Notes under the pieces: generated by a model
What the model saw: the letters and a program-made list of their open reading frames with translations, nothing else
The model's database searches: none
What the model was told of the DNA's origin: nothing
Part shown: one piece after another, positions 2,280 to 48,503 of the stretch
Layout of the letters: the number at the start of each line of letters is the position of its first letter
Numbering within the stretch: the first letter of the stretch is position 1
Program-made: the position numbers and the translations under genes
DNA from: Escherichia phage kaset
Reading direction: 5' to 3' (one strand)
Sequence record: PV245935.1
DNA length: 64,000 nucleotides

Positions 2280-4655
2280 ATGAAAATTCTTGGCATAAAA
2301 CTCTGGGAGAAGACGCAACCAGAAGCCGAACCAGCGGAGATGCCGCCAGGCGACCCATTGGCACCGTTTGAACGCCTTGAAAGGCGCGGCAGCGGTCAAC
2401 GCTGGGACAAGACCGAAAGCAATCGACCGACCTTTAAAACGGTTGATGACTTCCCTTTATATGAGCCTGATATTAATGGCGACGGTGTTGCGATCATAAA
2501 AGGTCGCTCAGTCGATTCTGCAACAGTATCCAAAAAGGTCATGGACAATGCCTTAAAGAACATTAGTTCAGAAGGGCAGGTCAACCCATACACAGTACCT
2601 ATTCAACTTCAAAACTGGTATTTGTCACAGTCATTCATCGGCTATCAAGCTTGTGCCATTATCGCACAGCATTGGCTGGTGAACAAGGCGTGTTCCATGG
2701 TAGGACGCGATGCTGTCCGTAAAGGCTGGGAAGTTAAATCCAGTTCTGAGTCAGAATTGTCAGTACAGGCGAGCGAACGCCTAAAGCAAATTGATAAAGA
2801 ATTTAATATCAAAGAGCACTTAGTTGAAGCCGAACGATTCAAAAATATTTTTGGTATCCGCGTCATCATATTTGATGTGCGTAGCGATGACCCAGAATAC
2901 TACAGCAAGCCTTTTAACATTGATGGCGTGACAAAGGGGTCTTATAAGGGAATCATTCAGGTTGACCCTTATTGGATGATGCCATTTCTTACGTCTGAAA
3001 ACACCGCCGACCCTGCATCACAGCACTTCTATGATCCAGAATACTGGGTGATAAGCGGCCAGCGTTATCATCGCAGCCATCTAATCATCTTGCGCAATGA
3101 TGAACCAGCTGATATTCTCAAGCCGACTTATATCTATGGCGGCATTCCTTTGACTCAGCAGATTTATGAACGCATCTATGCCGCTGAACGTACCGCTAAC
3201 GAAGCCCCATTGCTGGCGATGTCCAAGCGTACGACCACGCTGCGGACCGACGTTGACAAAGCTATTGCCAATGAGCGTTCTTTCGCAGAGCGTTTGATGA
3301 TGTGGATTAAGTACCGCGACAACTATGCAGTCAAAGTGCTTGGTCAAAAAGAAGAGATGGACCAGTTCGACATAAACTTGTCAGACTTCGATAGCATCAT
3401 CATGAACCAGTACCAGCTGGTGGCCGCAATCGCAAAAGTTCCGTCAACCAAACTGCTTGGGACTTCGCCAAAAGGCTTTAACGCCACTGGTGAATTTGAG
3501 ATGGTCAGCTATCACGAAGAGTTGGAAACTTGCCAGCAGCATGACCTGACAAAAATTCTCGACCGCCATTACAAAATCCTTCTCAAATCAGAAGGGGTGG
3601 AAGTCGATGTTAAGGTTGCATGGGAACCAGTTGGCTCACTTACTGCCACTCAACTTGCGGAAATCAACGACAAGAGAGCTAACACTGGCAAAACTCTTAT
3701 TGATGCTGGCGTCATTTCTCCTGATGAAGAGCGCGACCGCATCAAAGACGACAAAAACAGCGGCTACAACCGCTTGCCGGAAGATGCAGCAGAAGAAACC
3801 CCAGGGATGTCTCCAGAGAATATGGCATTGCTTGGCAAGTCTGCTGGTGAAGTCCTGCAAGGTAAAGCCGATATTGAACAGGCGAAGGCTGATGTCGTTA
3901 AGATGGGCGGCCAGTTCTACAGCGAAACAGGTATTATGCCAGAAGGTGCCGCGCGTGGTGAGTTGGCGGAAAACCCTGACAGAGCGCCTGTCGAAATCAA
4001 CATGGACGATACCGATGATGAATCAAGCCATCAGGTTGATGTTCTAACGCAGCTGAAGGAAGGTCTGGAGGGTATTGCGGATTACTACCTGAAAGAAGGT
4101 CAGGATGTGGATTTTGACCCTCAAAAAGATTCACGGTCGGTGCAACCGTCTACCCTTCCAAGCGTCAAAGGTAATGTCGTTAACTTACGACACAACGTTG
4201 GAAAGATGGACGCAGCATCGTTACCTAAGATGAAGTTGCACGGGCTGATTCTTGGGATTGAGAATCCTCGCAACAGCATCCGTAGAGGGAACAGCCTTGA
4301 CGGTGAATGGGCAGTCAAGATGCCGCATCACTACGGATTCATCAAGGGCACTAAGGGCGCGGACGGCGATGAAGTCGACTGCTTTGTTGGTCCAAATATG
4401 AAGTCGCCGAAGGTCTTTATCGTTAACCAGAACGATAATTACTCTGGCGAGTTTGATGAACACAAGTGTATGCTTGGATTCGATTCAGCAGAAGAAGCGA
4501 AAGAAGCTTATCAAGCATCATTTGGTAACGGTTGGAATGGATTCGACTCAATCCACGAATTAGATGTGAACTCATTCAAGGAGTGGTTGAAGGGTGATTG
4601 CTCTCAAGCATACGGAGCACTCAATAATCCTACTAATTCACCGAAGCAAGGTTGA
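2280..4655 (+). CDS. portal protein with C-terminal extension
   Basis: 792 aa from ATG 2280 (RBS AGGTGG upstream; ORF track TTG 2247); position directly after terL, size and central region typical of portal proteins; C-terminal ~180 aa of unknown function. Confidence 0.6.
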   Translation: MKILGIKLWEKTQPEAEPAEMPPGDPLAPFERLERRGSGQRWDKTESNRPTFKTVDDFPLYEPDINGDGVAIIKGRSVDSATVSKKVMDNALKNISSEGQVNPYTVPIQLQNWYLSQSFIGYQACAIIAQHWLVNKACSMVGRDAVRKGWEVKSSSESELSVQASERLKQIDKEFNIKEHLVEAERFKNIFGIRVIIFDVRSDDPEYYSKPFNIDGVTKGSYKGIIQVDPYWMMPFLTSENTADPASQHFYDPEYWVISGQRYHRSHLIILRNDEPADILKPTYIYGGIPLTQQIYERIYAAERTANEAPLLAMSKRTTTLRTDVDKAIANERSFAERLMMWIKYRDNYAVKVLGQKEEMDQFDINLSDFDSIIMNQYQLVAAIAKVPSTKLLGTSPKGFNATGEFEMVSYHEELETCQQHDLTKILDRHYKILLKSEGVEVDVKVAWEPVGSLTATQLAEINDKRANTGKTLIDAGVISPDEERDRIKDDKNSGYNRLPEDAAEETPGMSPENMALLGKSAGEVLQGKADIEQAKADVVKMGGQFYSETGIMPEGAARGELAENPDRAPVEINMDDTDDESSHQVDVLTQLKEGLEGIADYYLKEGQDVDFDPQKDSRSVQPSTLPSVKGNVVNLRHNVGKMDAASLPKMKLHGLILGIENPRNSIRRGNSLDGEWAVKMPHHYGFIKGTKGADGDEVDCFVGPNMKSPKVFIVNQNDNYSGEFDEHKCMLGFDSAEEAKEAYQASFGNGWNGFDSIHELDVNSFKEWLKGDCSQAYGALNNPTNSPKQG

Positions 4656-4656
4656 T

Positions 4657-5508
4657 ATGGCTTTTAAAGCTTCGAAAAAACGTGAGCGCCGCTCACCCGA
4701 TAGAATCGGGCGCGGCAGTCCGATAATCCCATCAAACGCTATTGCGATGGCCTACCGTCGTGAGATGAAAGGTCTTTGCTATGCGATGATTGATGACTAT
4801 CAGGAAGGCATTTCAGAATGGCTTGACAAGAAGCAGGTGCAGAAGTTTTTTGCGCAAGACTCTGCTGATTCGACATTCCAGACCCTTATGAAACGGCTGC
4901 AGCTGAAATGGGCAAAGGCGTTTGCACGTGTTGGGTCGAAGATTGCTGCTGATTTTGTCAAATCGGTCGAAAAGGGTGCCACTTCTGCTACATTCGCCAG
5001 CCTTAAGTCCGCAGGCATAGAAGCGCCAAAGGCCACGTACAACAAATTCGTTGAGAACACTCTTAGAACAAGCGAGACATTTAACACGACTCTAGTGACC
5101 AAGGTCGGCGAGGATATTCACAACAGAGTGTACGAAGCAGTAATGCTTTCACTGACTTCGCCCGACCCAGCCAAACAAGGCACGTCAGGCATTCAGGCGG
5201 CGCTGCGAAACGTCAAACACTTTTCTGCAAAGAGAGTCGATTTAATCGCTAAAGATCAAACAAGTAAATTGTATTGCGTTCTAAGCGATGAAAGAATGCG
5301 CCAGAATGGAGTTGAAGAATTTGAGTGGGCGCACTCAGGAGCAGGAAAGGAGCCGCGAATCTCTCATGAACACGTCGACGGAATGAGATTCAAACTTGAT
5401 GACAAGCGTCTATGGGAAGTTGGCGGAGAATTGAAGTTCAAAAAGGGCGACATCGGTCCTCCTGGATGGGCGATACACTGCAAGTGCAGGAAAATACCAA
5501 TCATTTGA
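4657..5508 (+). CDS. minor head / head morphogenesis protein (Mu F / SPP1 gp7-like)
   Basis: 284 aa; starts 2 nt after portal stop; typical gene order portal then MuF-like protein. Confidence 0.5.
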   Translation: MAFKASKKRERRSPDRIGRGSPIIPSNAIAMAYRREMKGLCYAMIDDYQEGISEWLDKKQVQKFFAQDSADSTFQTLMKRLQLKWAKAFARVGSKIAADFVKSVEKGATSATFASLKSAGIEAPKATYNKFVENTLRTSETFNTTLVTKVGEDIHNRVYEAVMLSLTSPDPAKQGTSGIQAALRNVKHFSAKRVDLIAKDQTSKLYCVLSDERMRQNGVEEFEWAHSGAGKEPRISHEHVDGMRFKLDDKRLWEVGGELKFKKGDIGPPGWAIHCKCRKIPII

Positions 5509-7000: not shown

Positions 7001-8422
7001 ATGCGAATGCAAACGGCACGCGAAATTGACAAAAATGGATTCTTGACGATTGTGGGTTGTCCCATTTCGTCATTTGGCATTTTTGATTATTCTGCAGGTC
7101 AGGTTGGACTTGATGGTGATCCGAATCGCATCGTAAAAGTTTATCGCCCAGAGTCAGCGGTGAAAGACCCCGAAGCGATAGATTCATTCAAAAATATCCC
7201 TTTCATCGACAATCACGAAATGCTTTCTGGATTCGAAGGTGATGAGGATAACACGGCACCCGAAGAGTATGGCGTTGATGGAGTTCTAACTGGCAATGTT
7301 TATTATGACAAGCCATGGATGCGCGGCGACCTTAAAGTTTTTAGCCGTCGTCTGAAGAAAGCCATCGATTCTGGAAAGGTTGACTTGTCTTTGGGCTATG
7401 ACTGTGAATTCATCATACAGTCTGGAGAGTTTGACGGGCAGCCGTATGAAGTGGTACAGACAACTCTTCGCGGCAACCACATTGCTCTCGTGGACGTTGG
7501 TCGAGTACCAGGTGCACGGGTGCTGGATGGTCGTTGCTTTGACCATCTTTGTTTGACGACTGTAACACCATCCAACGAGGATTTAGATATGCCAAAACCG
7601 TTAAAAGGTAAAGCGCGTGATAATGCTGTTGAACAGCTGAAATCACTGATCCCTGCGCTCGAACAATTTCTGAATGAAGAGAGCACCGAAGCTGCTCATC
7701 AGGATGAAGTTGAAGTGAAAGCAGAAGAGAAGGATTCAACCGAAGAACGTGAAGAAGTGATGGTTGATCCAGAAGTCAAAGCAGAAGCTGAAGAGACTCC
7801 AGAAGGTGAAGAGAAGTTTGAAGTTGAAACTGAATCTCACGCTGGTGGCGAGCTTCCGCAACTGATCAGCCAAATCGAAGCACTTATTGCAAAACTGAAA
7901 GGTGGCGCGGTAGGTGATGAAGAAGAAGTTGAAGCCGAAGTCAAAGACGAAGAAGAAGTTGAAGTCAAGGCTGAAGATGTATCACCTTGCGACAAAGCTG
8001 AAGATGTGGTTAGCGGCCTGCAAAACAGCAACGTAAAGGGGGCTTCGGTCGAAAAAGATGACAAACCGACAAAAGCGGCGAAAGCGTCGCCAGGTCCAGC
8101 AAAAGGGGAACACTCAATGGCATCTGATTCAGCAGTTGCTGCTTTCTACGCTGATTCTGCTCGTAAGAATAGCCTCTACCAGCGCCTGTCTAAAGTTGTT
8201 GGTGCCTTTGATCATGCAACTATGGACTCCAAGTCCGTAGCGAAATATGGCGCTAAAAAGTTAGGCTTGAAGTGCGTTGATGGCGCTGAGTTTGACGTTG
8301 TGGATAACTATCTGCGCGGCGTTGAACACGGTCAAAAACAGCGTGTAGTCGCAAAACAAAAGGCCGCTGCGGATTCTGCAGCAACTGACGAAGCATTTGA
8401 AGCTTGGTTGAAAGGGGAATAA
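7001..8422 (+). CDS. prohead protease / scaffolding fusion protein
   Basis: 473 aa; globular N-terminal domain followed by highly acidic Glu/Val/Lys-rich coiled-coil region (EEVEAEVKDEEEVEVKAED) typical of scaffolds; lies before the capsid gene. Confidence 0.5.
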   Translation: MRMQTAREIDKNGFLTIVGCPISSFGIFDYSAGQVGLDGDPNRIVKVYRPESAVKDPEAIDSFKNIPFIDNHEMLSGFEGDEDNTAPEEYGVDGVLTGNVYYDKPWMRGDLKVFSRRLKKAIDSGKVDLSLGYDCEFIIQSGEFDGQPYEVVQTTLRGNHIALVDVGRVPGARVLDGRCFDHLCLTTVTPSNEDLDMPKPLKGKARDNAVEQLKSLIPALEQFLNEESTEAAHQDEVEVKAEEKDSTEEREEVMVDPEVKAEAEETPEGEEKFEVETESHAGGELPQLISQIEALIAKLKGGAVGDEEEVEAEVKDEEEVEVKAEDVSPCDKAEDVVSGLQNSNVKGASVEKDDKPTKAAKASPGPAKGEHSMASDSAVAAFYADSARKNSLYQRLSKVVGAFDHATMDSKSVAKYGAKKLGLKCVDGAEFDVVDNYLRGVEHGQKQRVVAKQKAAADSAATDEAFEAWLKGE

Positions 8423-8424
8423 AC

Positions 8425-9042
8425 ATGACTTTCCAAACTAGTGTAGGCCGTCAATATACAACTGGCTTTCCTGGCGACATCGTTCGCGACGGCCCACAGC
8501 GTGGGAAGCCAGGCCGAATTGCCAACGCTAACGAAGGCGCAAACGTAAACGCCATCAGCCGTGTGTTCGGTTTTAAGACTGACGTATCCTTAATGGGTAC
8601 TGGTCAAACCAAAACTTTGGGCGCGCAGGACTTTGAAGTTGAGCTGGGCGGCACTAACTACTACGGCATCCTCGGTAATAGCAAGCGTTACGCGCTGTAT
8701 GGCAACTCTACTGGTCCTTTAGGTGCCAGCATGGTTCTGCCTCAATATAGCGAAGGCGAGTTTTACGATATGTGCACGGGCCTTGTAGTTGAAGTATTCA
8801 ACCCAAGCACCAGCCCGCAGACGCTTAACTATGGCGACCTGCTCGCTTATGTACCTAAAGGCATTTCCGGCGCGAACAACCCGAACAACTTGCCTATTGG
8901 CGCAATTATCGCCTATACTGGCTCACTGCCAACTGGCATGGTTGCCATCCCAGGCGGTATTGTGATTGACCCGACTGCTATTGCCCTTTCCGGTCCAAGC
9001 GTCCAGTCTTCCACTTATACCATTGTACAATTGACTCGTTAA
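8425..9042 (+). CDS. hypothetical head protein (possible decoration protein)
   Basis: 205 aa between scaffold and major capsid genes; Gly-rich. Confidence 0.4.
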   Translation: MTFQTSVGRQYTTGFPGDIVRDGPQRGKPGRIANANEGANVNAISRVFGFKTDVSLMGTGQTKTLGAQDFEVELGGTNYYGILGNSKRYALYGNSTGPLGASMVLPQYSEGEFYDMCTGLVVEVFNPSTSPQTLNYGDLLAYVPKGISGANNPNNLPIGAIIAYTGSLPTGMVAIPGGIVIDPTAIALSGPSVQSSTYTIVQLTR

Positions 9043-11636: not shown

Positions 11637-12212
11637 ATGACAGATGTCGACCTGATTGACATGCTGGCAACGCGAATTGAAGAAGGTCTGGCGGCGTATA
11701 GTCGTGCAGACCTTTCTGCTGTTCCGGTCCAGAAAAAGTATCAACCGACTCAACAGGGCATTCCGACTGGTGATCAAATTTGGTTTAACCTTTTATTCTC
11801 AGTTCCTTTTGGATGGTCCATGAGGAAAAGTGAATTTGCCAATGATGAGTCTCAATTCGTAAACGGCAAATTTAAAGATATTGAAGATCAGATATACGCA
11901 ACACGTTTTCAAATCAGCGGCTTATTTCCAGAAGTTCCTGGCAATCCAGAAAAGCCTACTGCTAATGACGTGTTGACTTATTTGGCAAGATTCATAACTC
12001 ATAAAGCTAATCTGAGAGATTGGTTCAAAAAGCATCAGGCATCAGTATATCGAATCGACATGAATAATAATGAAAAGTTTTATGATGACATGTCACAATT
12101 CGAATCATTCCCTTCTTTTGATTTAGTAATACTTCACAGAAACGCAATTTCAATTGATACTCCTGCAGTGGCAAGAGCTGTTAATAATGATTTGGGTGAC
12201 GTTCCGGTGTAA
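11637..12212 (+). CDS. hypothetical protein
   Basis: ATG 11637 after GAGGTG RBS (ORF track GTG 11631). Confidence 0.4.
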   Translation: MTDVDLIDMLATRIEEGLAAYSRADLSAVPVQKKYQPTQQGIPTGDQIWFNLLFSVPFGWSMRKSEFANDESQFVNGKFKDIEDQIYATRFQISGLFPEVPGNPEKPTANDVLTYLARFITHKANLRDWFKKHQASVYRIDMNNNEKFYDDMSQFESFPSFDLVILHRNAISIDTPAVARAVNNDLGDVPV

Positions 12213-12711: not shown

Positions 12712-14250
12712 GTGATCAGTCAATCTCGTTATATTAAAATTGTATCAGGGGTCGGAGCAGGCGCGGCTGTTGCAGTTCGCAAACTGTCGCTTCGCGTCAT
12801 GACTTCTAATACAGTTCTGCCGCCAGGCATTGTAGCAGAATTTTCAACGGCTGATGCTGTTGGATCATATTTCGGTTATTCTTCCGAAGAATATAAGCGC
12901 GCAGCATTATATTTTGGATTCATCAGCAAGCAAATTAACTCGCCTGATTCAATCAGCTTCTCGCGTATTGTTTCAACTGCGATCCCAGCAATGGTCATCG
13001 GTGATACTGAGCCTAAAGTGCTTGCTACGTTTCAAGCATTCACTGGCGCTATCTTAAGCATCACTTATGATGGCACAGACTACCTGACTGACGCAATTAA
13101 CCTTTCAGCGGCAACAAGCCTGGCAAATGTGGCTGAACTTCTGGAAACGGCAATCAATACTAAATTTGCAGCAGAAGGTGGCACGTCGGTGCCTGCACTT
13201 GCTGATGCAGAAGTGTATTGGAACGCTAATACTCAGCAGTTCACGCTGGAAGCAGCGCCGTCGACCGCTGGTGCAGGCAATCTGTCTATCAACGTCACAG
13301 GCCAACCGACCGACCCGTCTCAGGCATTGGGTTGGACCACCACTGGCACCGTAACCGTTGCAGGCCAGGGCGTTTCAAGTCCGGTAGAAGCCATCGCGGC
13401 ATCTGTGGAAATCTCCAACAACTTTGGCTCATTCCTTTTTGCTGGGGCTGACCGAACTCTGGAAGAAATTACCGCTGTGGCAGCGTGGACTCATTCGCAG
13501 AATAATATGTACATGTATTTATTCTCGACTTCGTTCGCTAATATCGGGTCATACTACACCGCTCTGAAAGGGTACTCAGGCGTTGGCATGATGATTCGCG
13601 CAACTAACCTTGCCAACGATTACATCGACCAAGCACCTGCTGAAATCCTCGCGGCAACAAACTATAATACTGTGAATGCGACTCAAAACTACATGTATTA
13701 TCAGTTTGATACTCGCAACGTGACTGTTTCAACTGACTCTCGCGCAGATACTGCTGATCAAAACCGTGCGAACTACATCGGTGCTACTCAGCAGGCCGGA
13801 CAAACCTTGGCATTCTTCCAGCGCGGCGTATTGATGGGCGGGTCAACAGCAGCAGTTGATATGAACACTTATGCCAACGAAATGTGGCTCAAGTCTGCTA
13901 TTACATCTCAGCTGTTCAGCATGTTCTTGAATCTTGGTCGCGTCCCTGCTAACGAAGAAGGGAAAGCGACTGTGCAAGCCATGATTCAGGTTGCTGTGGA
14001 TAACGCAAAAGTGAACGGCACCATCTCTGTTGGCAAGGCGCTGACTGAGATTCAGAAACAATACATCACGCAAACTTCCGGTGACAACACTGCTTGGCGG
14101 CAGGTTGAAACTATCGGTTACTGGCTGACTGTAGATTTTGATACTGAAACCACTTCCGATGGGCGCACCGAATACTATGCAACATACACGCTAATCTACT
14201 CTAAAGATGATGCTGTGCGTCGCGTTGAAGGTCGTGACGTTCTTATCTAA
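12712..14250 (+). CDS. putative tail sheath protein
   Basis: 512 aa, GTG start with AGAGGA RBS; followed by small tube-like paralogs and a short tape measure, consistent with a contractile tail. Confidence 0.4.
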   Translation: MISQSRYIKIVSGVGAGAAVAVRKLSLRVMTSNTVLPPGIVAEFSTADAVGSYFGYSSEEYKRAALYFGFISKQINSPDSISFSRIVSTAIPAMVIGDTEPKVLATFQAFTGAILSITYDGTDYLTDAINLSAATSLANVAELLETAINTKFAAEGGTSVPALADAEVYWNANTQQFTLEAAPSTAGAGNLSINVTGQPTDPSQALGWTTTGTVTVAGQGVSSPVEAIAASVEISNNFGSFLFAGADRTLEEITAVAAWTHSQNNMYMYLFSTSFANIGSYYTALKGYSGVGMMIRATNLANDYIDQAPAEILAATNYNTVNATQNYMYYQFDTRNVTVSTDSRADTADQNRANYIGATQQAGQTLAFFQRGVLMGGSTAAVDMNTYANEMWLKSAITSQLFSMFLNLGRVPANEEGKATVQAMIQVAVDNAKVNGTISVGKALTEIQKQYITQTSGDNTAWRQVETIGYWLTVDFDTETTSDGRTEYYATYTLIYSKDDAVRRVEGRDVLI

Positions 14251-14256
14251 ATAATT

Positions 14257-14274
14257 GCCGCCGTAACTGGCGGC
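14257..14274 (+). other. stem-loop between putative sheath and tube genes
   Basis: GCCGCC-gtaact-GGCGGC perfect 6-bp stem; no T-tract, so attenuator or RNA-stability element rather than a classical terminator. Confidence 0.3.
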
Positions 14275-14297
14275 CATCTCTCTGAGAGGAATCTGTA

Positions 14298-14765
14298 ATG
14301 ATTAACGTTTCCGGTTTTGGCGCTTCGATTCGTTTAGTGGCATCAAACACTTTTCCAAATGGTGTAACTCTTTCTGATTTCGCAGATGATGCTGATCCGA
14401 TTGACGCGCCTGATCTTCAAATCTCTGAAGCAGCAATGGGATTGAACGGTGACCTGGTAGTATGGAACCGTGCCAACCCTCTTGAAGTAGGCGTCAACAT
14501 CATCCCTACTTCTGAAAGCGATGTGAACTTAGATGTTCTGGCAGCGGCTAACCGTGTAGGCAAGCGAAAGAACTCTGCGAAAGACGTGATCACCCTTATT
14601 CTGACCTACCCTTCTGGCATGGTCATTACACTGAACAAGGGCACTTTGACGACTGGCTCAGTAATTCCTGGCATCCAGTCTCAGGGTCGTGTAAAAACAC
14701 GTCAATATCGCTTTAAGTTTGAGAACGTAGTCAAAACTGGCGTGAGCAACCAAGAGATTTTATAA
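14298..14765 (+). CDS. putative tail tube protein
   Basis: 155 aa; N-terminus MINVSGFGASIRLVA paralogous to MVNISGFGTSIRIVA of ORF 15716-16213. Confidence 0.45.
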   Translation: MINVSGFGASIRLVASNTFPNGVTLSDFADDADPIDAPDLQISEAAMGLNGDLVVWNRANPLEVGVNIIPTSESDVNLDVLAAANRVGKRKNSAKDVITLILTYPSGMVITLNKGTLTTGSVIPGIQSQGRVKTRQYRFKFENVVKTGVSNQEIL

Positions 14766-27914: not shown

Positions 27915-28559
27915 ATGATTAATGCAAACGTAATATCTAAAGGGACCGGATGCAGCATGGATGTTGCAGAGAAATGGGTGGACCCTTTCAAGCAGGCTTG
28001 TGAGCACTACGGAATCAAAAGCAAGAATGCCATCGCGGCATTCCTTGCAAACGTAGGAGTAGAGACGGGCAGCTTGAAAACCTTTGTGGAAAATCTCAAC
28101 TACTCTGCTCAAGGTCTTGCCAATACATGGCCTAGTCGTTACAGCGTCAACGGTCGTTTCGGCGGCGCACCCAACTCCTTGGCATTGTCGATTGCCCGTA
28201 AACCAATGGAAATCGCCAATAATACATACGCAAACCGCATGGGCAACGGTTCAGTATCATCTGGCGACGGTTGGAAGTACCGTGGCCGTGGTGCCATTCA
28301 GCTAACCGGAAAGGCTAACTATGCTGAATATACGCGTCAATCAGGCTATGATGCATTGAACAATCCTGATATTCTGACTGAACCAAAATACATTGCTGAC
28401 AGCGCGGCGTGGTTCTTCAAGAACAGCGGTTGCATTCCACTTGCTGATGCAGGCGCATTTGATTCGACTGTGAAGAGGATTAACGGGGCCGCGCCGAATA
28501 CGGCTAACCATGGGGATTTGCGACGGAAGCGTTACAAGGATGCACTAGCAGTTATGTAA
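27915..28559 (+). CDS. endolysin, glycoside hydrolase family 19-like
   Basis: 214 aa; motifs FLANVGVETG and YRGRGAIQLTGKANY match GH19 catalytic signatures; AAGGTGA RBS. Confidence 0.8.
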   Translation: MINANVISKGTGCSMDVAEKWVDPFKQACEHYGIKSKNAIAAFLANVGVETGSLKTFVENLNYSAQGLANTWPSRYSVNGRFGGAPNSLALSIARKPMEIANNTYANRMGNGSVSSGDGWKYRGRGAIQLTGKANYAEYTRQSGYDALNNPDILTEPKYIADSAAWFFKNSGCIPLADAGAFDSTVKRINGAAPNTANHGDLRRKRYKDALAVM

Positions 28560-28560
28560 G

Positions 28561-28591
28561 AAAAAGGCCCATATGGGCCTTTGTTTATTTT
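28561..28591. terminator. bidirectional Rho-independent terminator
   Basis: AAAAAGGCCCatatGGGCCTTTGTTTATTTT; hairpin flanked by A-run and T-run; between convergent genes. Confidence 0.6.
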
Positions 28592-28815
28592 ACGGCTTCA
28601 ACTTGGACGGGCGGAGCGGAACTTGTATCAATGTCTGGCAAGTCGAAGTAATACCCCGCCATACCAATCACACCTACAATCGCGGCCCGTGCCACCTTGT
28701 TGCTAATTGACTCCCCAATAAGCTTTACCAACAGGGATAAGATTTGAGACGTCAAAGCCTTTTTCAGCCTTTTGTTTTCTTCCAAATCTTTCTGCATAAC
28801 TACCACCCATGTCAA
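28585..28815 (-). CDS. small membrane protein
   Basis: 76 aa; hydrophobic segment VARAAIVGVIGMAGYYF. Confidence 0.45.
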   Translation of the reverse strand: MTWVVVMQKDLEENKRLKKALTSQILSLLVKLIGESISNKVARAAIVGVIGMAGYYFDLPDIDTSSAPPVQVEAVK

Positions 28816-29354
28816 CGCACTTCCTGTGTCTTAACATTACCTGAAGCATCTCTCAAGGGCAGTGGATAGTAGGCCATTTGGTAGTCTGATACGCCTTCAA
28901 TGTGATAAAACACGATTACGTCTTTGCTGTTGATGAGCATGTTAACGACATCTGATTTATCTTCTGGAGTGAGTATTAGTGCGCCGCCTGTCCTGCTGTC
29001 TACTGCAACAGGGTATGTCTTGTCGACAAGGCCGCTGTCCAATGTATTATACCTGACAACGATTTCAGGGGCATCAACTTTTGCCATCGACATTCCGAAC
29101 ACAAACGACACGACCTGCCGACCGCGATCATTCATTACGCACATCTTTTCTTTGTCAAATCTTTCTTTTATTACGTCGTATTTATTCCAGCAAAACTCAA
29201 ATGACTGCCCATTGTTGAAATATCTTGTCAAAACTTTTGCACTTCCATTCGGCGGCGTAAACATATTTTCAGCCGATGCAGTCTTGGTGAAGAATATAAC
29301 TGTCAGCATAGCCATGATGATGATCAAAACAATCTTTAATTTGTTCGCTTTCAT
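28812..29354 (-). CDS. secreted / periplasmic protein
   Basis: 180 aa; N-terminal signal peptide MKANKLKIVLIIIMAMLTVIFFTKTASA. Confidence 0.5.
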   Translation of the reverse strand: MKANKLKIVLIIIMAMLTVIFFTKTASAENMFTPPNGSAKVLTRYFNNGQSFEFCWNKYDVIKERFDKEKMCVMNDRGRQVVSFVFGMSMAKVDAPEIVVRYNTLDSGLVDKTYPVAVDSRTGGALILTPEDKSDVVNMLINSKDVIVFYHIEGVSDYQMAYYPLPLRDASGNVKTQEVR

Positions 29355-29419: not shown

Positions 29420-29458
29420 GAAAGTAAATAAAAGAAAAGCCGGAAATTTCCGGCTTTA
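29420..29458 (-). terminator. Rho-independent terminator downstream of ligase gene
   Basis: perfect hairpin AGCCGGAAA/TTTCCGGCT followed on minus strand by TTTCTTTTATTT. Confidence 0.5.
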
Positions 29459-29529: not shown

Positions 29530-30504
29530 TTAAAAATACTCCATATCGGTAATATCACGGAAGCATTTATACAAGGCAGAGCGCGGCACGTCAACGATGC
29601 CAAAGTTGAAGAATTTATATGTCAGATACTTGTTGCGATAATTCTCGCGATTCTCCCAAAGCATTTTTCTCTCTGCCATAGGCATTGAACCAGCGGAGAC
29701 GCGGAAAGGAATCATTTCACCTTTCTCATCAACATATTTTGGATTGACAACCACAAATGATCCAAGGTATCCTTTTGCAACTAAGCCTTCAGCCTCTTTC
29801 GAACGCTTAGTGCGACCCAACTCATCAATGAATGCTTCGTTGTTGTTCTCCATCATCTCAACGAAGTCTATGATCAGTCCTTCTTCATCGGTCCACGGCT
29901 TGTCCTTCCACACATCACGTGACTTTGGCGTCGCGCGACCATGCTTGTATTTGCCCGTCCAAGACTTGCCATACAAGCCTTCATAGCCAAGTTGGTCTGC
30001 TTCGATTTGCATTGCCGCGTACTGTTCCATATTTTCGATGTTGCGATATTCGAGAGCGCGAAGGAATGGACGTCGGCCATGGTCAATGAGATATTGATTG
30101 ACCTCAGCAACGCGTCGATTATACTGCTCATAACGTGCCGAGAAAGGCAAATCAGGTTCGCTAAAGTCATCAAACACCCACCATGTGAAGTTTGTTATAG
30201 CATCGGTATTCATGCAGGCGGTATAGGCTTGCTGCATTACGTTCTTATCATTCGGATTGCCGTCAATAAGCTCTCCATCAAGGCCGTGAATCAATTCACC
30301 CAAAAAGAGGAACTCTTTTTTAATCTGGACGTTTCGAAGCGCCATGCCGGACGTACCCATTGGCAAGTTGTCATACGCCATCGCGCGTATGCCATCGACC
30401 TTGAAGGACAACCCGCAAGGCAGCGGCACATCTTCGCCACGCTCGATAATTTGTTTACGCTGGCAACCTTTCATTGGTTTTAATGCTTTGATTTCCCCTG
30501 CCAT
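29530..30504 (-). CDS. ATP-dependent DNA ligase
   Basis: 324 aa; adenylation motif KVDGIR (KxDGxR). Confidence 0.8.
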   Translation of the reverse strand: MAGEIKALKPMKGCQRKQIIERGEDVPLPCGLSFKVDGIRAMAYDNLPMGTSGMALRNVQIKKEFLFLGELIHGLDGELIDGNPNDKNVMQQAYTACMNTDAITNFTWWVFDDFSEPDLPFSARYEQYNRRVAEVNQYLIDHGRRPFLRALEYRNIENMEQYAAMQIEADQLGYEGLYGKSWTGKYKHGRATPKSRDVWKDKPWTDEEGLIIDFVEMMENNNEAFIDELGRTKRSKEAEGLVAKGYLGSFVVVNPKYVDEKGEMIPFRVSAGSMPMAERKMLWENRENYRNKYLTYKFFNFGIVDVPRSALYKCFRDITDMEYF

Positions 30505-31097
30505 TACTCGCGACCCTCATTCATTACTTGTTCCATTGCGTAGGCATAAGCCTGATCAGTCGATTTGATAAACGTGCCGTTGTACATCACCCCTTTACGG
30601 TCCTTGATGTCTTCATAGGCGGCTTGAGCGCAATCAGACAGTCGAAGTCCATAATCATGCGCTACGCCGGAAAGATAATCGACTGCGGCCATGATAGTGA
30701 CATCAATATCCATGCTTTGATTTTTAGCAATGGCGTCACCAAGCCGTCCGAGAGTCTTCGCCAAGCGAAGGATAAAGGAATGAGGGTGAGCGCCTTTGTC
30801 AGCGCAACCGCCGCCGATGATGTCTTCGATTTTTGCACCATTTTGCGCGGCAAGAATAGTTAACACAACAAGGCAATCACCGATGTCGTCCTTGATTGCG
30901 GCTTGCAAATCACAAATGGCCTGCTCTGTATATCCGATTTCAGGGTCAAAGAACACAAGGTCATGGAGTTGATCCACGTGGTCGGTCAACTCCCCAAACT
31001 CGCTAATAAGCTTCGGGTATTGGTCTTTAAGGTCGCAACCTTTGATGATGTTACGGTCAGAAGCCCATTGGCGAATGTTTGCATAAATCTGGTTCAT
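30504..31097 (-). CDS. MazG-like nucleotide pyrophosphohydrolase (putative)
   Basis: 197 aa; all-alpha pattern KLISEFGEL ... IGDCLVVLTILAAQNG resembling MazG/NTP-PPase motifs. Confidence 0.4.
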   Translation of the reverse strand: MNQIYANIRQWASDRNIIKGCDLKDQYPKLISEFGELTDHVDQLHDLVFFDPEIGYTEQAICDLQAAIKDDIGDCLVVLTILAAQNGAKIEDIIGGGCADKGAHPHSFILRLAKTLGRLGDAIAKNQSMDIDVTIMAAVDYLSGVAHDYGLRLSDCAQAAYEDIKDRKGVMYNGTFIKSTDQAYAYAMEQVMNEGRE

Positions 31098-31612
31098 TTA
31101 TTTTCCTTTGATGCGTTGAATTGGTCGATTTTAATTTTAGCCTGATTATAAGTATCAATCAAGCTATTAACTTTCTCTTTTAATCGGTTCGTTTCTGCGG
31201 CGAACTGAACAAGAAATCGGACATCCTCTTCTGATAGTCCACAGTTTCCTTCTGGGATAGAGAGGCGTCCAGTGGTCGCAGAGTAGGGCACACTCCTGAG
31301 TAATTCACGGGAACAGCTGAGTTGCTCGCGCAGCTTGATATTCCCAGACTTGTAACGAGCAATAGTGTCATCAGCAACCAGTTGCGCTTCCTGGCGACCC
31401 TTCTCATATGCCGATGCCGATTCAACCTGTAAAGATGCAATTTGCTCTTCGAGTGCATTTATCTTGTCCTTACGCTCATTAAGCGATGTCAGATATTGAT
31501 TGTCCTTGGCCAGTGATGCGTTGGTTTGCTGAAGGTCTTCAACGTATGATCCAGCGGCGAACGCGCCAACAAGGGCCAGAATCTTCAGTAGCGGTACAAT
31601 TCTTTCTATCAT
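31094..31612 (-). CDS. Rz: i-spanin (Rz-like)
   Basis: 172 aa; N-terminal TM segment, coiled coils, C-terminal LREQLSCSRELLR region resembling lambda Rz; contains embedded lipoprotein ORF in another frame. Confidence 0.55.
   Translation of the reverse strand: MIERIVPLLKILALVGAFAAGSYVEDLQQTNASLAKDNQYLTSLNERKDKINALEEQIASLQVESASAYEKGRQEAQLVADDTIARYKSGNIKLREQLSCSRELLRSVPYSATTGRLSIPEGNCGLSEEDVRFLVQFAAETNRLKEKVNSLIDTYNQAKIKIDQFNASKENK
31180..31407 (-). CDS. Rz1: o-spanin (Rz1-like lipoprotein) embedded within Rz
   Basis: internal start of ORF 31180-31458; signal MRRVARKRNWLLMTLLLVTSLGISSC with lipobox ISSC; Pro-containing mature part. Confidence 0.5.
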   Translation of the reverse strand: MRRVARKRNWLLMTLLLVTSLGISSCASNSAVPVNYSGVCPTLRPLDASLSQKETVDYQKRMSDFLFSSPQKRTD

Positions 31613-31669
31613 GATGCACCAGATAAATAAAAGGCCGCCAATCGGCAGCCTTGTTGATTTGATTGTCGA

Positions 31670-38956: not shown

Positions 38957-39508
38957 TTATGCAGTGTACGGAGTGCCGTCTTGATTCAACCGCACGATGA
39001 ATTTAAGGTCTACACCGATGATTTCACGCGTATCAAAGATCACATAGTTGTAACGACGCTGACCAGCAATATTTGGGTTGGTGTGAGAGTCAGTTACGAC
39101 TTCCTGCGCAACCTGAATGCCTTCTTCTTTAAAGAACTTACGCCATTCAGCAAGTTCAGCGACAGTCACGTGCATACCAAGATGGCTGACCTGATTATCG
39201 TGCGCATCGAGCATGTCGATGTTTTCGTTGATCCAGTTGCAACCTTTTGTGTAGTCAAGAATTTCAAGTTCAAGAGGCTTGCCAGCGCCGCCATCGGTGC
39301 CGTTGCCAGCCTGATAGTTGAAGCGCAAGTCAGCTTCATTGGTGCAATCGTCGCGACGACCTTTAAATTCATCAGCTTCAAATACGCGACCAGTAGCAAC
39401 AACATGATCATGGAACCATTCTGTCAGGCCGATTTTGGCCAGAAAATCCTGTGCACGCTGAGCATCTGGAATTGACAGGGCGATTTGTTCAATTTTAAAG
39501 TGTGGCAT
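38957..39508 (-). CDS. hypothetical protein (possible VOC/glyoxalase-like fold)
   Basis: 183 aa; tentative fold assignment from His/Glu spacing only. Confidence 0.3.
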   Translation of the reverse strand: MPHFKIEQIALSIPDAQRAQDFLAKIGLTEWFHDHVVATGRVFEADEFKGRRDDCTNEADLRFNYQAGNGTDGGAGKPLELEILDYTKGCNWINENIDMLDAHDNQVSHLGMHVTVAELAEWRKFFKEEGIQVAQEVVTDSHTNPNIAGQRRYNYVIFDTREIIGVDLKFIVRLNQDGTPYTA

Positions 39509-39528
39509 TTTGTTTCCTTAATTAAATA

Positions 39529-39744
39529 TTATTGATTAATTACTGTGTTGTCTTCGTCCTGTTTCTTTTCAGGAGCGGGTGTGACAACTTCAAATTTAGG
39601 TTTGGGCAATTCACCTTTAGCACCTGGGACTTCAACGACAATCTTTTTGTCAGGCTCAACAGGATTTGGAACTTCAAATTTGATCGTGTATCCTAATACA
39701 ACAAGAAGCACTAAACCGATTACCGCTACCCAGGCTTTGTTCAT
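39529..39744 (-). CDS. small membrane-anchored protein
   Basis: 71 aa; N-terminal TM helix AWVAVIGLVLLVVLGY then Pro/Lys/Glu-rich tail. Confidence 0.4.
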   Translation of the reverse strand: MNKAWVAVIGLVLLVVLGYTIKFEVPNPVEPDKKIVVEVPGAKGELPKPKFEVVTPAPEKKQDEDNTVINQ

Positions 39745-39747
39745 GAT

Positions 39748-40431
39748 TTATTTCCCAAATGGAATATCAGTACCAGACATAAAGCGCCATGCGCCCGTAA
39801 TTAAGATATGGCGAATGAAGTCAGCAATTACTTGCGGCTCAGTCTCCAATCCATTCATCAACGCCTTTTTCTGGTATTCAGCAGCATACTCAGGAGTCCA
39901 GCCGCGAGTCGCGCAAACAGCATCTTCAATCTGTTTAGACATACCAGTGCCGCGCAACTTGTTAGGACTAATAGAGAATACCGTGATCCCGTATTTAGGC
40001 GTAAGTTCGTGGGCCATCTGCTTACTGATCATAAGCGCAGCGGCCTTGGAAGCATTATAACACAAGCTGGACGTCATAGGAATATGCGCAGCGTTGGAAA
40101 CGATATTGATCACAAAACCTTTGTTGTCGATAAGACTTTTCAGTGTCGCCTGAGTCGTGTTAACGAAAGAGAAAGCGTTGGTATGCATAACGCGGTTAAA
40201 TTCTTCGTAGTTGACATCTTCAAACCAGTTGTTGGAGTTTACGCCAGCACAGTTGATCAAGCCTTCTACATCATATGGGCTTAAAATTTCTTTCATCTGT
40301 TTAGCGTCGCGGACGTCATATCCGTATGCTGAATCGATGCCAAGCACGTTATGACCGTAAGCGCCAAGGGTGTCAAAAATAGATTTACCAAGACCAGAAT
40401 TGGAACCTGTTACAACAATTACTTTTTTCAT
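39748..40431 (-). CDS. short-chain dehydrogenase/reductase (SDR)
   Basis: 227 aa; Rossmann motif VVTGSNSGLGKS, NCAGV, catalytic YNASK (YxxxK). Confidence 0.75.
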   Translation of the reverse strand: MKKVIVVTGSNSGLGKSIFDTLGAYGHNVLGIDSAYGYDVRDAKQMKEILSPYDVEGLINCAGVNSNNWFEDVNYEEFNRVMHTNAFSFVNTTQATLKSLIDNKGFVINIVSNAAHIPMTSSLCYNASKAAALMISKQMAHELTPKYGITVFSISPNKLRGTGMSKQIEDAVCATRGWTPEYAAEYQKKALMNGLETEPQVIADFIRHILITGAWRFMSGTDIPFGK

Positions 40432-48398: not shown

Positions 48399-48503
48399 AT
48401 GAAAGCCGTAAAGAAATACACATTAATCATTTCCCTTGTTATCATCCTGGGGCTATTATATGTATTGGATATGGCATATTATTTGGCAGGGGTGAGTAAA
48501 TGA
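48399..48503 (+). CDS. small hydrophobic peptide (34 aa)
   Basis: MKAVKKYTLIISLVIILGLLYVLDMAYYLAGVSK; stop overlaps next ATG (ATGA); weak RBS. Confidence 0.3.
   Translation: MKAVKKYTLIISLVIILGLLYVLDMAYYLAGVSK

Follow-up and report, generated by a model that had tools for sequence, protein, structure and literature searches.

The locus at 31094-31612 on the minus strand of the window, the whole 64-kb stretch of phage DNA analysed here, raises two questions: whether a gene that stands among DNA-metabolism genes and encloses a lipoprotein-like frame encodes a genuine spanin pair, and whether its separation from the endolysin gene bears on the timing of lysis. The window belongs to a Wifcevirus, a PB1-like E. 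coli myophage (ECML-117/WFH/Mansfield-like). With a probability of about 0.9, we assign the locus to a two-component spanin of the embedded Rz/Rz1 architecture, a functional class set out by Summer 2007 and Kongari 2018, its function being attributed by analogy. The pair is already known and ordinary for the genus. Indeed, an i-spanin and an o-spanin are annotated at the same locus in MK903282 (Mansfield) and PQ850605 (Bas100), RefSeq Wifcevirus records label it 'Rz-like spanin', and ECML-117 is catalogued among the embedded i-/o-spanin singletons in the spanin survey of Kongari et al. 2018 (PMC6139136). Many other Wifcevirus GenBank records give both frames as 'hypothetical' or leave the o-spanin out. 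Since several GenBank entries for the genus already name the pair, naming it again adds little annotation value. ECML-117, Mansfield, WFH and Bas98-101 carry the same genes (i-spanin identity 96.5-100%) in the same place, flanked by the Pam3_Gp34-like gene and the MazG-like gene. The window is nevertheless a distinct isolate, 98% identical to other Wifcevirus records at the spanin locus, with 92-96% identity among the records listed in its last 2.5 kb.

The outer gene and its membrane segment are located as follows.

31094..31612, minus strand: i-spanin gene, 172 aa, open reading frame matching PHROG 1327 'Rz-like spanin' (E = 1e-26)
31544..31600, minus strand: i-spanin membrane helix IVPLLKILALVGAFAAGSY, codons 5-23, Kyte-Doolittle 1.8 to 2.1

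The PHROG 1327 profile match covers residues 6-160 of the 172, and by its sequence the product belongs to the PHROG 1327 or PY54-ECML-117-type family. Residues 5-23 are the sole hydrophobic segment on the Kyte-Doolittle scale and predict a single N-terminal transmembrane domain (TMD) of type II topology (N-in/C-out), which bears out the i-spanin-like gene with a membrane helix that had been proposed here. In the AlphaFold2 model of the monomer (mean pLDDT 80), a helix at residues 5-106 is followed by a linker at 107-127 and a second helix at 128-170, giving the periplasmic domain of two helices and a linker that is expected of an i-spanin. We compared the gene with that of six relatives (L008-L011, PY54 and LIET2; i-spanin identity 26-65%). 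The periplasmic Cys100 and Cys124 are invariant across the seven aligned sequences and, like Cys57 of the o-spanin, would be available for homotypic intermolecular disulfides. The membrane segment contains an AFA↓A motif, a possible signal-peptidase site. Because this motif is not conserved in L011, PY54 and LIET2 in the alignment, the segment is more likely an uncleaved signal anchor than a cleaved signal.

The second frame lies wholly inside the first, in the classic Rz/Rz1 arrangement that the initial annotation had recognised.

31180..31458, minus strand: long form of the o-spanin gene (92 aa), nested completely within the i-spanin gene, +1 frame; start as in GenBank (Mansfield, Bas100)
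31180..31407, minus strand: o-spanin, short form from an internal ATG, with the 25-aa canonical lipoprotein signal MRRVARKRNWLLMTLLLVTSLGISS followed by C; extent given in the initial annotation
31330..31341, minus strand: lipobox I-S-S-C, fitting [LVI][ASTVI][GAS]C, with Cys as predicted lipoylation and signal peptidase II site
31467..31471, minus strand: AAGGA Shine-Dalgarno site, 8 nt 5' of ATG 31458, kept in L008-L011

The proposed ISSC lipobox holds: it matches the published consensus (PMC6139136) and is kept in the six relatives, where the site reads ISGC, ISSC or TSSC. It is preceded by a basic n-region and a 12-residue hydrophobic stretch, its Cys codon is 31330-31332, and the residue at +2 is Ala. 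Asp at +2 is the inner-membrane retention signal for lipoproteins; given Ala at this position, the product would be sorted to the outer membrane. The mature o-spanin runs from Cys43 to Asp92 (50 aa) and has a second cysteine, Cys57, which is invariant across the seven sequences. As for the start, ATG 31407, at which the frame had been begun, is indeed conserved, but the upstream ATG 31458 has the Shine-Dalgarno site and is the GenBank start. These codons lie 25 and 42 codons 5' of the Cys, respectively, and both are kept in four relatives (i-spanin identity 52-65%). The internal ATG at -25 is kept in all five Wifcevirus-like sequences and has no Shine-Dalgarno site. The AAGGA site also codes for a conserved R-K-D of the i-spanin. 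The long form would have a 42-residue signal, which is unusually long.

The conservation of the second frame bears on whether it is a gene at all. If it were a chance frame, the 172-aa protein would be a membrane-anchored coiled coil serving replication or DNA attachment rather than lysis. The neighbouring genes are those of DNA metabolism, and no Pfam spanin family was found at E ≤ 0.1 except O_Spanin_T7, below threshold for the o-spanin frame (E = 0.09; 13 bits vs a cut-off of 25); the other weak match of this frame is to PHROG 4306 (E = 6e-4). Moreover, when the i-spanin codons were permuted synonymously 5000 times and the +1 frame scored, 573 permutations (11%) kept that frame open over 92 codons or more. 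A lipoprotein-like signal appeared in the +1 frame in only 27 of the 5000, however, and the embedded frame, lipobox, mature o-spanin and periplasmic cysteines are kept in 6/6 relatives. Even at 26-30% i-spanin identity, the relatives retain the lipobox, both ATGs and the mature o-spanin. PY54 is one of them, and there the pair comes after a holin gene and an endolysin gene. The o-spanin motifs G-x-C-P and E-T-x-D-x-Q...M-S-x-x-L-F are invariant in the seven sequences. Within the overlap with the mature o-spanin, third positions of the i-spanin vary in 26 of 50 columns (52%) vs 64 of 72 (89%) outside it (Fisher p = 7e-6), and this comparison points to purifying selection on both frames. Together with the PHROG 1327 match of the outer protein at E = 1e-26, these data make a chance frame extremely improbable and favour the embedded spanin pair.

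The pair resembles lambda Rz/Rz1 in design: the i-spanin has a TMD at its N-terminus, a linker between two periplasmic helices, and two periplasmic cysteines, and the o-spanin is an outer-membrane lipoprotein with a periplasmic Cys, encoded in the embedded +1 frame. The mechanism is presumably the same. In contrast, there is no detectable homology. The 'lambda Rz-like C-terminus' that had been noted does not stand, as BLASTP of the i-spanin against lambda Rz gave a non-significant E = 4.8 and lambda Rz1 gave no alignment to the o-spanin. Membership in the lambda Rz (Pfam Phage_lysis) and Rz1 sequence families was thus rejected. The o-spanin here is not proline-rich, with 4 Pro counted in the 50 mature residues; lambda Rz1 is richer in proline. 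The lambda pair, unlike this one, is encoded downstream of S and R within the same late operon. The nearest relative outside the genus is ORF63 of PY54, a temperate, N15-like Yersinia phage (i-spanin identity 29%, tblastn E = 1e-13); tblastn matches also included the i-/o-spanin of Burkholderia phage Mica and the spanin of Pantoea LIET2. Judged by sequence, the window pair is homologous to the lysis-cassette spanin of PY54, which likewise has an o-spanin embedded in the +1 frame, with lipobox ISGC, G-x-C-P and E-T-x-D-x-Q...M-S-x-F-L-F. The PY54 pair ends a classical holin-endolysin-spanin cassette, whereas the window pair stands alone among DNA-metabolism genes. In the literature consulted, we found no published experiment on the PY54/ECML-117-type spanin family.

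By analogy with lambda Rz/Rz1, we infer the localisation, expression, complex formation and fusion activity of the pair. The spanin genes would share a transcript with the genes for the MazG-like protein and the ligase, downstream of the conserved terminator hairpin. The product of the outer gene would be an inner-membrane protein of type II, with two long helices and a linker in the periplasm, and that of the embedded gene a small lipoprotein, lipoylated at Cys43 and carried to the outer membrane. The two proteins would join through their C-termini, with disulfide cross-links at the conserved cysteines, into complexes that span the periplasm and stay inert within the peptidoglycan mesh. Removal of the wall by the GH19 endolysin would then allow them to fuse the inner membrane with the outer one and so free the progeny.

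The surroundings of the pair comprise the following features.

31631..31652, minus strand: intrinsic-terminator hairpin, 9 bp with 6 G-C pairs, then TTATTTAT; ends 18 nt before the i-spanin ATG
30504..31097, minus strand: MazG-like pyrophosphatase gene (PHROG 1992, E = 1e-64)
29530..30504, minus strand: ATP-dependent DNA ligase gene, last of the spanin-MazG-ligase unit (PHROG 114, E = 4e-41)
29436..29457, minus strand: terminator hairpin closing the spanin-MazG-ligase unit, also annotated in Mansfield
27915..28559, plus strand: GH19-type endolysin gene, 214 aa, last gene of the tail operon (Pfam Glyco_hydro_19; PHROG 181)
28585..28797, minus strand: gene for a PB1 gp49-like small protein with two weakly hydrophobic stretches (PHROG 5165), convergent with the endolysin gene

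The upstream hairpin is annotated as a terminator in Mansfield and kept in L008-L011, among which its changes are one-sided only, with no two-sided, compensatory covariation. The ATG of the MazG-like gene overlaps the i-spanin stop codon (ATGA), an overlap of 4 nt that recurs in L008-L011 and suggests co-transcription and translational coupling of the spanin and MazG-like genes. The endolysin (Glyco_hydro_19, 32 bits vs a cut-off of 25.5; PHROG 181, E = 3e-69) is encoded about 2.5 kb away, end to end; its gene lies on the plus strand and belongs to a different transcription unit, with terminators in between. The spanin is thus neither adjacent to nor co-oriented with the endolysin, as it would be in a canonical holin-endolysin-spanin cassette, and the split noted in the initial annotation is confirmed.

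From this split, however, it does not follow that lysis timing is separately regulated, as was further claimed. Taken as a regulatory design, the arrangement would put the spanins on a schedule separate from that of the endolysin and thereby help to set the time of lysis. The spanin unit is bracketed on its strand by the terminators 31652-31631 and 29457-29436, its translation appears linked to the MazG-like and ligase genes rather than to late genes, and the upstream hairpin, conserved in relatives and in PB1, could attenuate expression. However, in the published model the complexes build up without effect for as long as the endolysin has not removed the peptidoglycan, and it is the holin that sets the timing (PMC6139136). 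T4 provides a precedent for the split arrangement: it is a virulent myophage with dispersed lysis genes, and its spanin genes pseT.3 and pseT.2 are not near holin t or endolysin e (PMC6139136), although the two genes lie apart instead of one inside the other and are of an unrelated family. PB1, finally, has the same slot, terminator and ATGA overlap around an unrelated gene, so that the split arrangement predates the spanin and was inherited rather than built for it. We consider a regulatory design quite unlikely. The location in the 'replication module' is best explained by non-orthologous gene replacement in a slot that already existed rather than by a role in timing.

The order helicase, DUF7307, Pam3_Gp34, slot, MazG, ligase and convergent endolysin is shared by the window, L008-L011, PB1 and Hera. 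PB1 (Pbunavirus) belongs to the same virus supergroup and has the same backbone synteny. In Pseudomonas PB1 and Serratia Myosmarvirus, the slot is occupied by a three-segment membrane protein (gp52) that is unrelated to the spanin pair; this occupant is what is new here. PB1 gp52 (201 aa, three hydrophobic segments and a coiled coil) is not a spanin. It is called a 'putative holin' in one record, and its match to GTA_holin_3TM is sub-threshold only. As in the window, its gene is preceded by a terminator hairpin, of different stem sequence at the same place, and overlaps the start of the MazG gene (gp51) by 4 nt. Unlike the window, PB1 encodes a unimolecular spanin, gp08 (AWAC lipobox), near its terminase gene. 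None of gp52, gp08 (the u-spanin) and gp10 has a match in the window at E ≤ 1. The GC content of the i-spanin gene (0.451 vs 0.462 for the window) shows no anomaly that would indicate recent transfer.

The initial annotation had also recognised no holin. This holds within the 64-kb window, where a screen of all open reading frames for TMDs (positive controls: lambda S, the PY54 holin and PB1 gp10 and gp52), PHROG and Pfam revealed no recognisable holin, either beside the endolysin or elsewhere. About 4.25 kb of the genome lies outside the window, however, and in 28/28 Wifcevirus records this stretch encodes a 71-aa gp019-like protein that has two TMDs and an acidic C-terminus; Mansfield encodes a 113-aa two-TMD protein there as well. 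'No holin' is therefore partly a window-edge effect. From its class-II holin-like topology, the 71-aa protein is a candidate holin. Wifceviruses are in development against E. coli O157, and a concrete holin candidate sits just outside the window. A literature search on Wifcevirus lysis or a Wifcevirus holin found no paper.

The phage might instead have no canonical holin, its cytoplasmic GH19 endolysin reaching the wall by a non-canonical route, through a new membrane-permeabilising protein such as the gp49-like one or by a releasin-like or other mechanism. The 64-kb window encodes no small protein with at least two clear TMDs and gives no PHROG or Pfam holin match, and the CPT annotators, who look for lysis genes, named none in Mansfield. 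The gp49-like gene keeps its position beside the endolysin in three genera (Pbunavirus, Myosmarvirus and Wifcevirus), and non-holin routes do exist, that of phage Mu being an example (PMC9239132). Against this stand the 71-aa two-TMD protein encoded in all 28 Wifcevirus records, the great diversity of holins, which profile libraries often miss, and the short, weak hydrophobic stretches of the gp49-like protein (1.19 and 1.28). A route without a holin is unlikely in our judgement, and the gp49-like protein is a low-confidence candidate for a lysis regulator. A SAR endolysin, which would explain an absent holin, was rejected, as the endolysin has no N-terminal hydrophobic segment. To judge by its translation, the PB1 endolysin does not seem to be of the SAR type either, which is at odds with the association of the PB1 family with pinholin-SAR endolysin systems in Kongari et al. 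(PMC6139136).

Two other genes were set aside as holin candidates. The 180-aa protein of 28812-29354 was considered as a T4-T-like class III holin, but an A-x-A cleavage site and two Cys, all of them invariant, make a secreted periplasmic protein more likely; its AF2 model (pLDDT 45.6) is too poor to use. For the 71-aa single-TMD protein of 39529-39744, an ORFan with no family match, we found no support as a holin. The gene adjoining it matches a FabG-like reductase family.

It is possible, and we propose it tentatively, that the slot is an exchangeable site for envelope or lysis genes in PB1-like myophages, and that Wifcevirus-like phages swapped a holin-like gp52-type gene for a two-component spanin from an enterobacterial phage; the u-spanin and gp10 of Pbunavirus are also lacking. 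If so, lysis timing in Wifcevirus would be set by a so far unrecognised protein, with two candidates: the gp019-like ORFan (71 aa, two TMDs) encoded outside the window and the gp49-like protein, whose gene adjoins that of the endolysin. More generally, related genera use unrelated spanin genes at different positions for outer-membrane disruption, Pbunavirus with a unimolecular spanin near the terminase gene and Wifcevirus with an embedded pair in the gp52 slot. A published 'u-spanin' assignment touches on this comparison: ORF85 of the JJ01 paper (621 bp) lies directly before the helicase gene, as PB1 gp54 does, and appears to be mislabelled. PB1 gp54 is the DUF7307 protein, and its translation has neither a hydrophobic segment nor a lipobox; the real u-spanin of PB1 is gp08.

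The initial annotation described an Rz/Rz1-type spanin pair, with a lipoprotein ORF embedded in another frame of an i-spanin-like gene. This core interpretation is well supported: the two ORFs, the lipobox, their conservation in relatives and a dual-coding signal confirm that the locus is an embedded pair.

31094-31612, minus strand: i-spanin gene, ORF of 172 aa
31458 to 31180, minus strand: o-spanin ORF of 92 aa, in the open +1 frame
31341-31330, minus strand: o-spanin lipobox I-S-S-C, fitting the consensus [LVI][ASTVI][GAS]C

The sole strongly hydrophobic segment of the i-spanin, residues 5-23 (IVPLLKILALVGAFAAGSY; Kyte-Doolittle 1.8 to 2.1), agrees with the proposed TM helix. The AlphaFold2 model (six homologues; mean pLDDT 80) comprises a helix (5-106), a coil (107-127) and a second helix (128-170), the same arrangement as in lambda Rz (TMD, helix, linker, helix; PMC6139136). 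Residues C100 and C124 are invariant among the i-spanins aligned. The protein matches PHROG 1327 ('Rz-like spanin') with E = 1e-26, and Pfam returned no above-threshold family for the pair. A lambda Rz-like C-terminus had also been claimed, but it is unsupported because BLASTP gave E = 4.8 against lambda Rz and no alignment to Rz1. The pair thus resembles Rz/Rz1 in architecture, not in sequence. Beyond Wifcevirus, tblastn matches were found in the Yersinia phages PY54, vB_YenS-P840 and vB_YenM_P744, Burkholderia phage Mica, the Pantoea phages LIET2 and Nafs113 and Serratia phage MQ-4. In PY54 the homologous pair follows the holin and endolysin genes, which ties this spanin family to lysis.

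The 2.3 kb around the locus are 98% identical to Escherichia phage vB_EcoM_WFH and Shigella phage CWP003, and 96-97% identical to ECML-117, Mansfield and further members of Wifcevirus, which are PB1-like myophages infecting E. coli (PMC6753283; PMC6563267). The spanin pair is already annotated and catalogued, and is therefore not new. In Mansfield (MK903282), CPT_Mansfield_057 and 058 are annotated as i-spanin and o-spanin at equivalent coordinates; the label 'Rz-like spanin' stands in the Bas98-101 records and in RefSeq WFH, ECML-117, FEC19 and WFC; and Kongari et al. 2018 placed ECML-117 among the embedded i-spanin/o-spanin singletons (PMC6139136). Only two points are fresh: the slot replacement relative to PB1-like phages and the question of the Wifcevirus holin.

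The o-spanin lipobox is preceded by a hydrophobic stretch and a very basic n-region, and its cysteine is directly followed by Ala. Under the Lol-sorting rules, Ala at this position specifies the outer membrane, to which the o-spanin is thus predicted to be sorted. The mature protein is predicted to have 50 aa and to include a further Cys, residue 57 of the precursor. The o-spanin had been placed at 31180-31407; this start yields a textbook 25-residue lipoprotein signal, but it is an internal ATG without a Shine-Dalgarno site. The upstream ATG at 31458, chosen by the GenBank annotators, has AAGGA eight bases 5'. The i-spanin residues across it differ among relatives (N-A, Y-D, H-D, D-D, N-E), yet xAT-Gxx is kept in every version, which suggests that selection acts on this start codon itself. 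The mature lipoprotein is identical from either start.

In 5000 synonymous-codon permutations of the i-spanin gene, the +1 frame was open over at least 92 codons in 573 and carried a lipoprotein-like signal in 27. This single-sequence evidence argues moderately that the embedded ORF exceeds chance; the comparative evidence is decisive. A protein search retrieved four metagenomic relatives (i-spanin identity 52-65%) whose contigs all show the same gene order around the spanin. The +1 ORF is present in each of them with a lipobox (ISGC, ISSC, ISGC, TSSC), and so are two ATGs: one 42 codons 5' of the Cys, preceded by AAGGA, and another 25 codons 5' of it. A homologous embedded lipoprotein also lies within the more distant i-spanins of Yersinia phage PY54 and Pantoea phage LIET2. 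Invariant residues in seven aligned o-spanins include C43, G55, C57, P58, P62, E71, T72, D74, Q76, M79, S80, L83 and F84. Third codon positions of the i-spanin vary in 26 of 50 columns overlapping the mature o-spanin versus 64 of 72 non-overlapping columns (Fisher p = 7e-6), the signature expected of dual coding.

Pseudomonas phage PB1 has the same backbone as the window: helicase, DUF7307 (gp54), Pam3_Gp34 (gp53), slot, MazG (gp51), ligase (gp50), gp49 and convergent endolysin (gp48). The slot holds another gene.

PB1 (L004) 13738-14343, minus strand: gp52, in the slot of the window's spanin pair
Serratia phage Hera (L014, Myosmarvirus) 4501-5106: gp52 homologue, in the same slot

The hydrophobic N-terminus of PB1 gp52 (201 aa) is rich in Gly and Ala; the protein also has a coiled coil and, at its C-terminus, two TMDs. 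It shares with the window's spanin gene an upstream terminator-like hairpin and the overlap with the MazG start. Nearly every record labels it 'hypothetical', a single one 'putative holin', and its match to Pfam GTA_holin_3TM is sub-threshold (E = 0.018). Proteins of this PB1 type, membrane proteins with a coiled coil, are widely conserved. The unimolecular spanin of PB1, which carries an AWAC lipobox (PMC6139136), is gp08, encoded near the terminase gene, and its family is restricted to Pseudomonas and Pbunavirus-type records. The window contains no match to PB1 gp08, gp10 or gp52. On the simplest reading, the Wifcevirus-like lineage placed a PY54-type spanin pair into a pre-existing slot. 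The spanin gene has no GC anomaly, so a compositional trace of recent transfer is not seen.

Two metagenomic contigs carry a 150-aa endolysin of another type (PHROG 90) at the GH19 position (L008 9065-9520 and L009 9078-9530, both minus strand); the endolysin slot is thus exchangeable too. ORF85 of phage JJ01 (621 bp) has been labelled 'U-spanin' (PMC9583000). It lies directly before the helicase gene, as does PB1 gp54, a DUF7307 protein whose translation has neither a hydrophobic segment nor a lipobox. We infer that the label is wrong and was propagated by PHASTER; the genuine Pbunavirus u-spanin is the gp08 homologue.

The transcriptional context is defined by the following features.

27915-28559, plus strand: GH19 endolysin gene, last of the tail operon
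31652-31631, minus strand: terminator hairpin, stopping 18 nt 5' of the i-spanin ATG
29457-29436, minus strand: second hairpin, 3' of the ligase gene

The i-spanin stop overlaps the start of the MazG-like gene (ATGA), which abuts the ligase gene, so that the three genes form one unit. No sigma-70-like site was found between the upstream hairpin and the i-spanin ATG, and we infer that the spanins are probably expressed by read-through or from an unrecognised promoter. This hairpin is kept in the four metagenomic relatives, with one-sided changes only. The endolysin is not of the SAR type, since it has no N-terminal hydrophobic segment. The separation of spanin and endolysin genes had been taken to imply separate regulation of lysis timing. 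This argument is weak. The accepted model has spanin complexes build up inside the peptidoglycan mesh and become active only once the endolysin has cleared the peptidoglycan, and the T4 spanin genes also lie apart from t and e (PMC6139136).

All ORFs of the window were screened for hydrophobic segments, and the positive controls (lambda S, PY54 holin, PB1 gp10 and gp52) were all detected. Few real genes showed a clear TMD: those of the i-spanin, a 180-aa protein (28812-29354) and a 71-aa protein (39529-39744). PHROGs and Pfam gave no holin match in the window. The reported lack of a holin was thus reproduced inside the window, but it was overstated. On the Mansfield map, the window starts within the large terminase gene (9451), circles the genome and stops at 5205, leaving about 4.25 kb outside, where Mansfield encodes a holin candidate.

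Mansfield (L003) 8797-9012, minus strand: gp019, 71 aa, two TMDs, acidic C-terminus, class-II holin-like
Mansfield (L003) 7814-8155, minus strand: gp015, 113 aa, N- and C-terminal hydrophobic segments; also outside the window
28585-28797, minus strand: gp49-like gene (PHROG 5165), the next gene downstream of the endolysin gene, in convergent orientation
PB1 (L004) 11691-11942: gp49, homologue of the gp49-like gene
Hera (L014) 7840-8049: gp73, homologue of the gp49-like gene

Gp019 is present in 28/28 Wifcevirus records, labelled 'hypothetical' in each, and has no family match; it is a reasonable candidate for a putative holin. The gp49-like protein adjoining the endolysin is a weaker one. It is kept at the endolysin-convergent position in three genera (Pbunavirus, Myosmarvirus and Wifcevirus). 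Its N-terminus is basic, a conserved GESVKDK motif lies between two short hydrophobic stretches, and its Pro-rich tail varies.

Other small genes were noted.

28812-29354, minus strand: 180-aa protein gene, flanked by the ligase terminator and the gp49-like gene
38957-40431, minus strand: three genes, for a 183-aa ORFan, a 71-aa single-TMD protein and a FabG-like short-chain reductase
39529-39744, minus strand: the 71-aa single-TMD ORFan, Pro/Lys/Glu-rich, GC 0.40

The 180-aa protein is probably secreted, since its A-x-A cleavage site and two of its Cys residues are invariant. Its gene, found only in the Wifcevirus-like clade, has promoter-like sites upstream and a GC of 0.42, and looks like a self-contained, moron-like unit for a predicted periplasmic protein. 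The three genes at 38957-40431 separate the polymerase exonuclease-subunit and polynucleotide kinase genes, which are adjacent in PB1. Two tiny putative ATG-initiated ORFs, at 48399-48503 (plus strand, 34 aa) and 63811-63909 (minus strand, 32 aa), each encode mainly one strongly hydrophobic helix.
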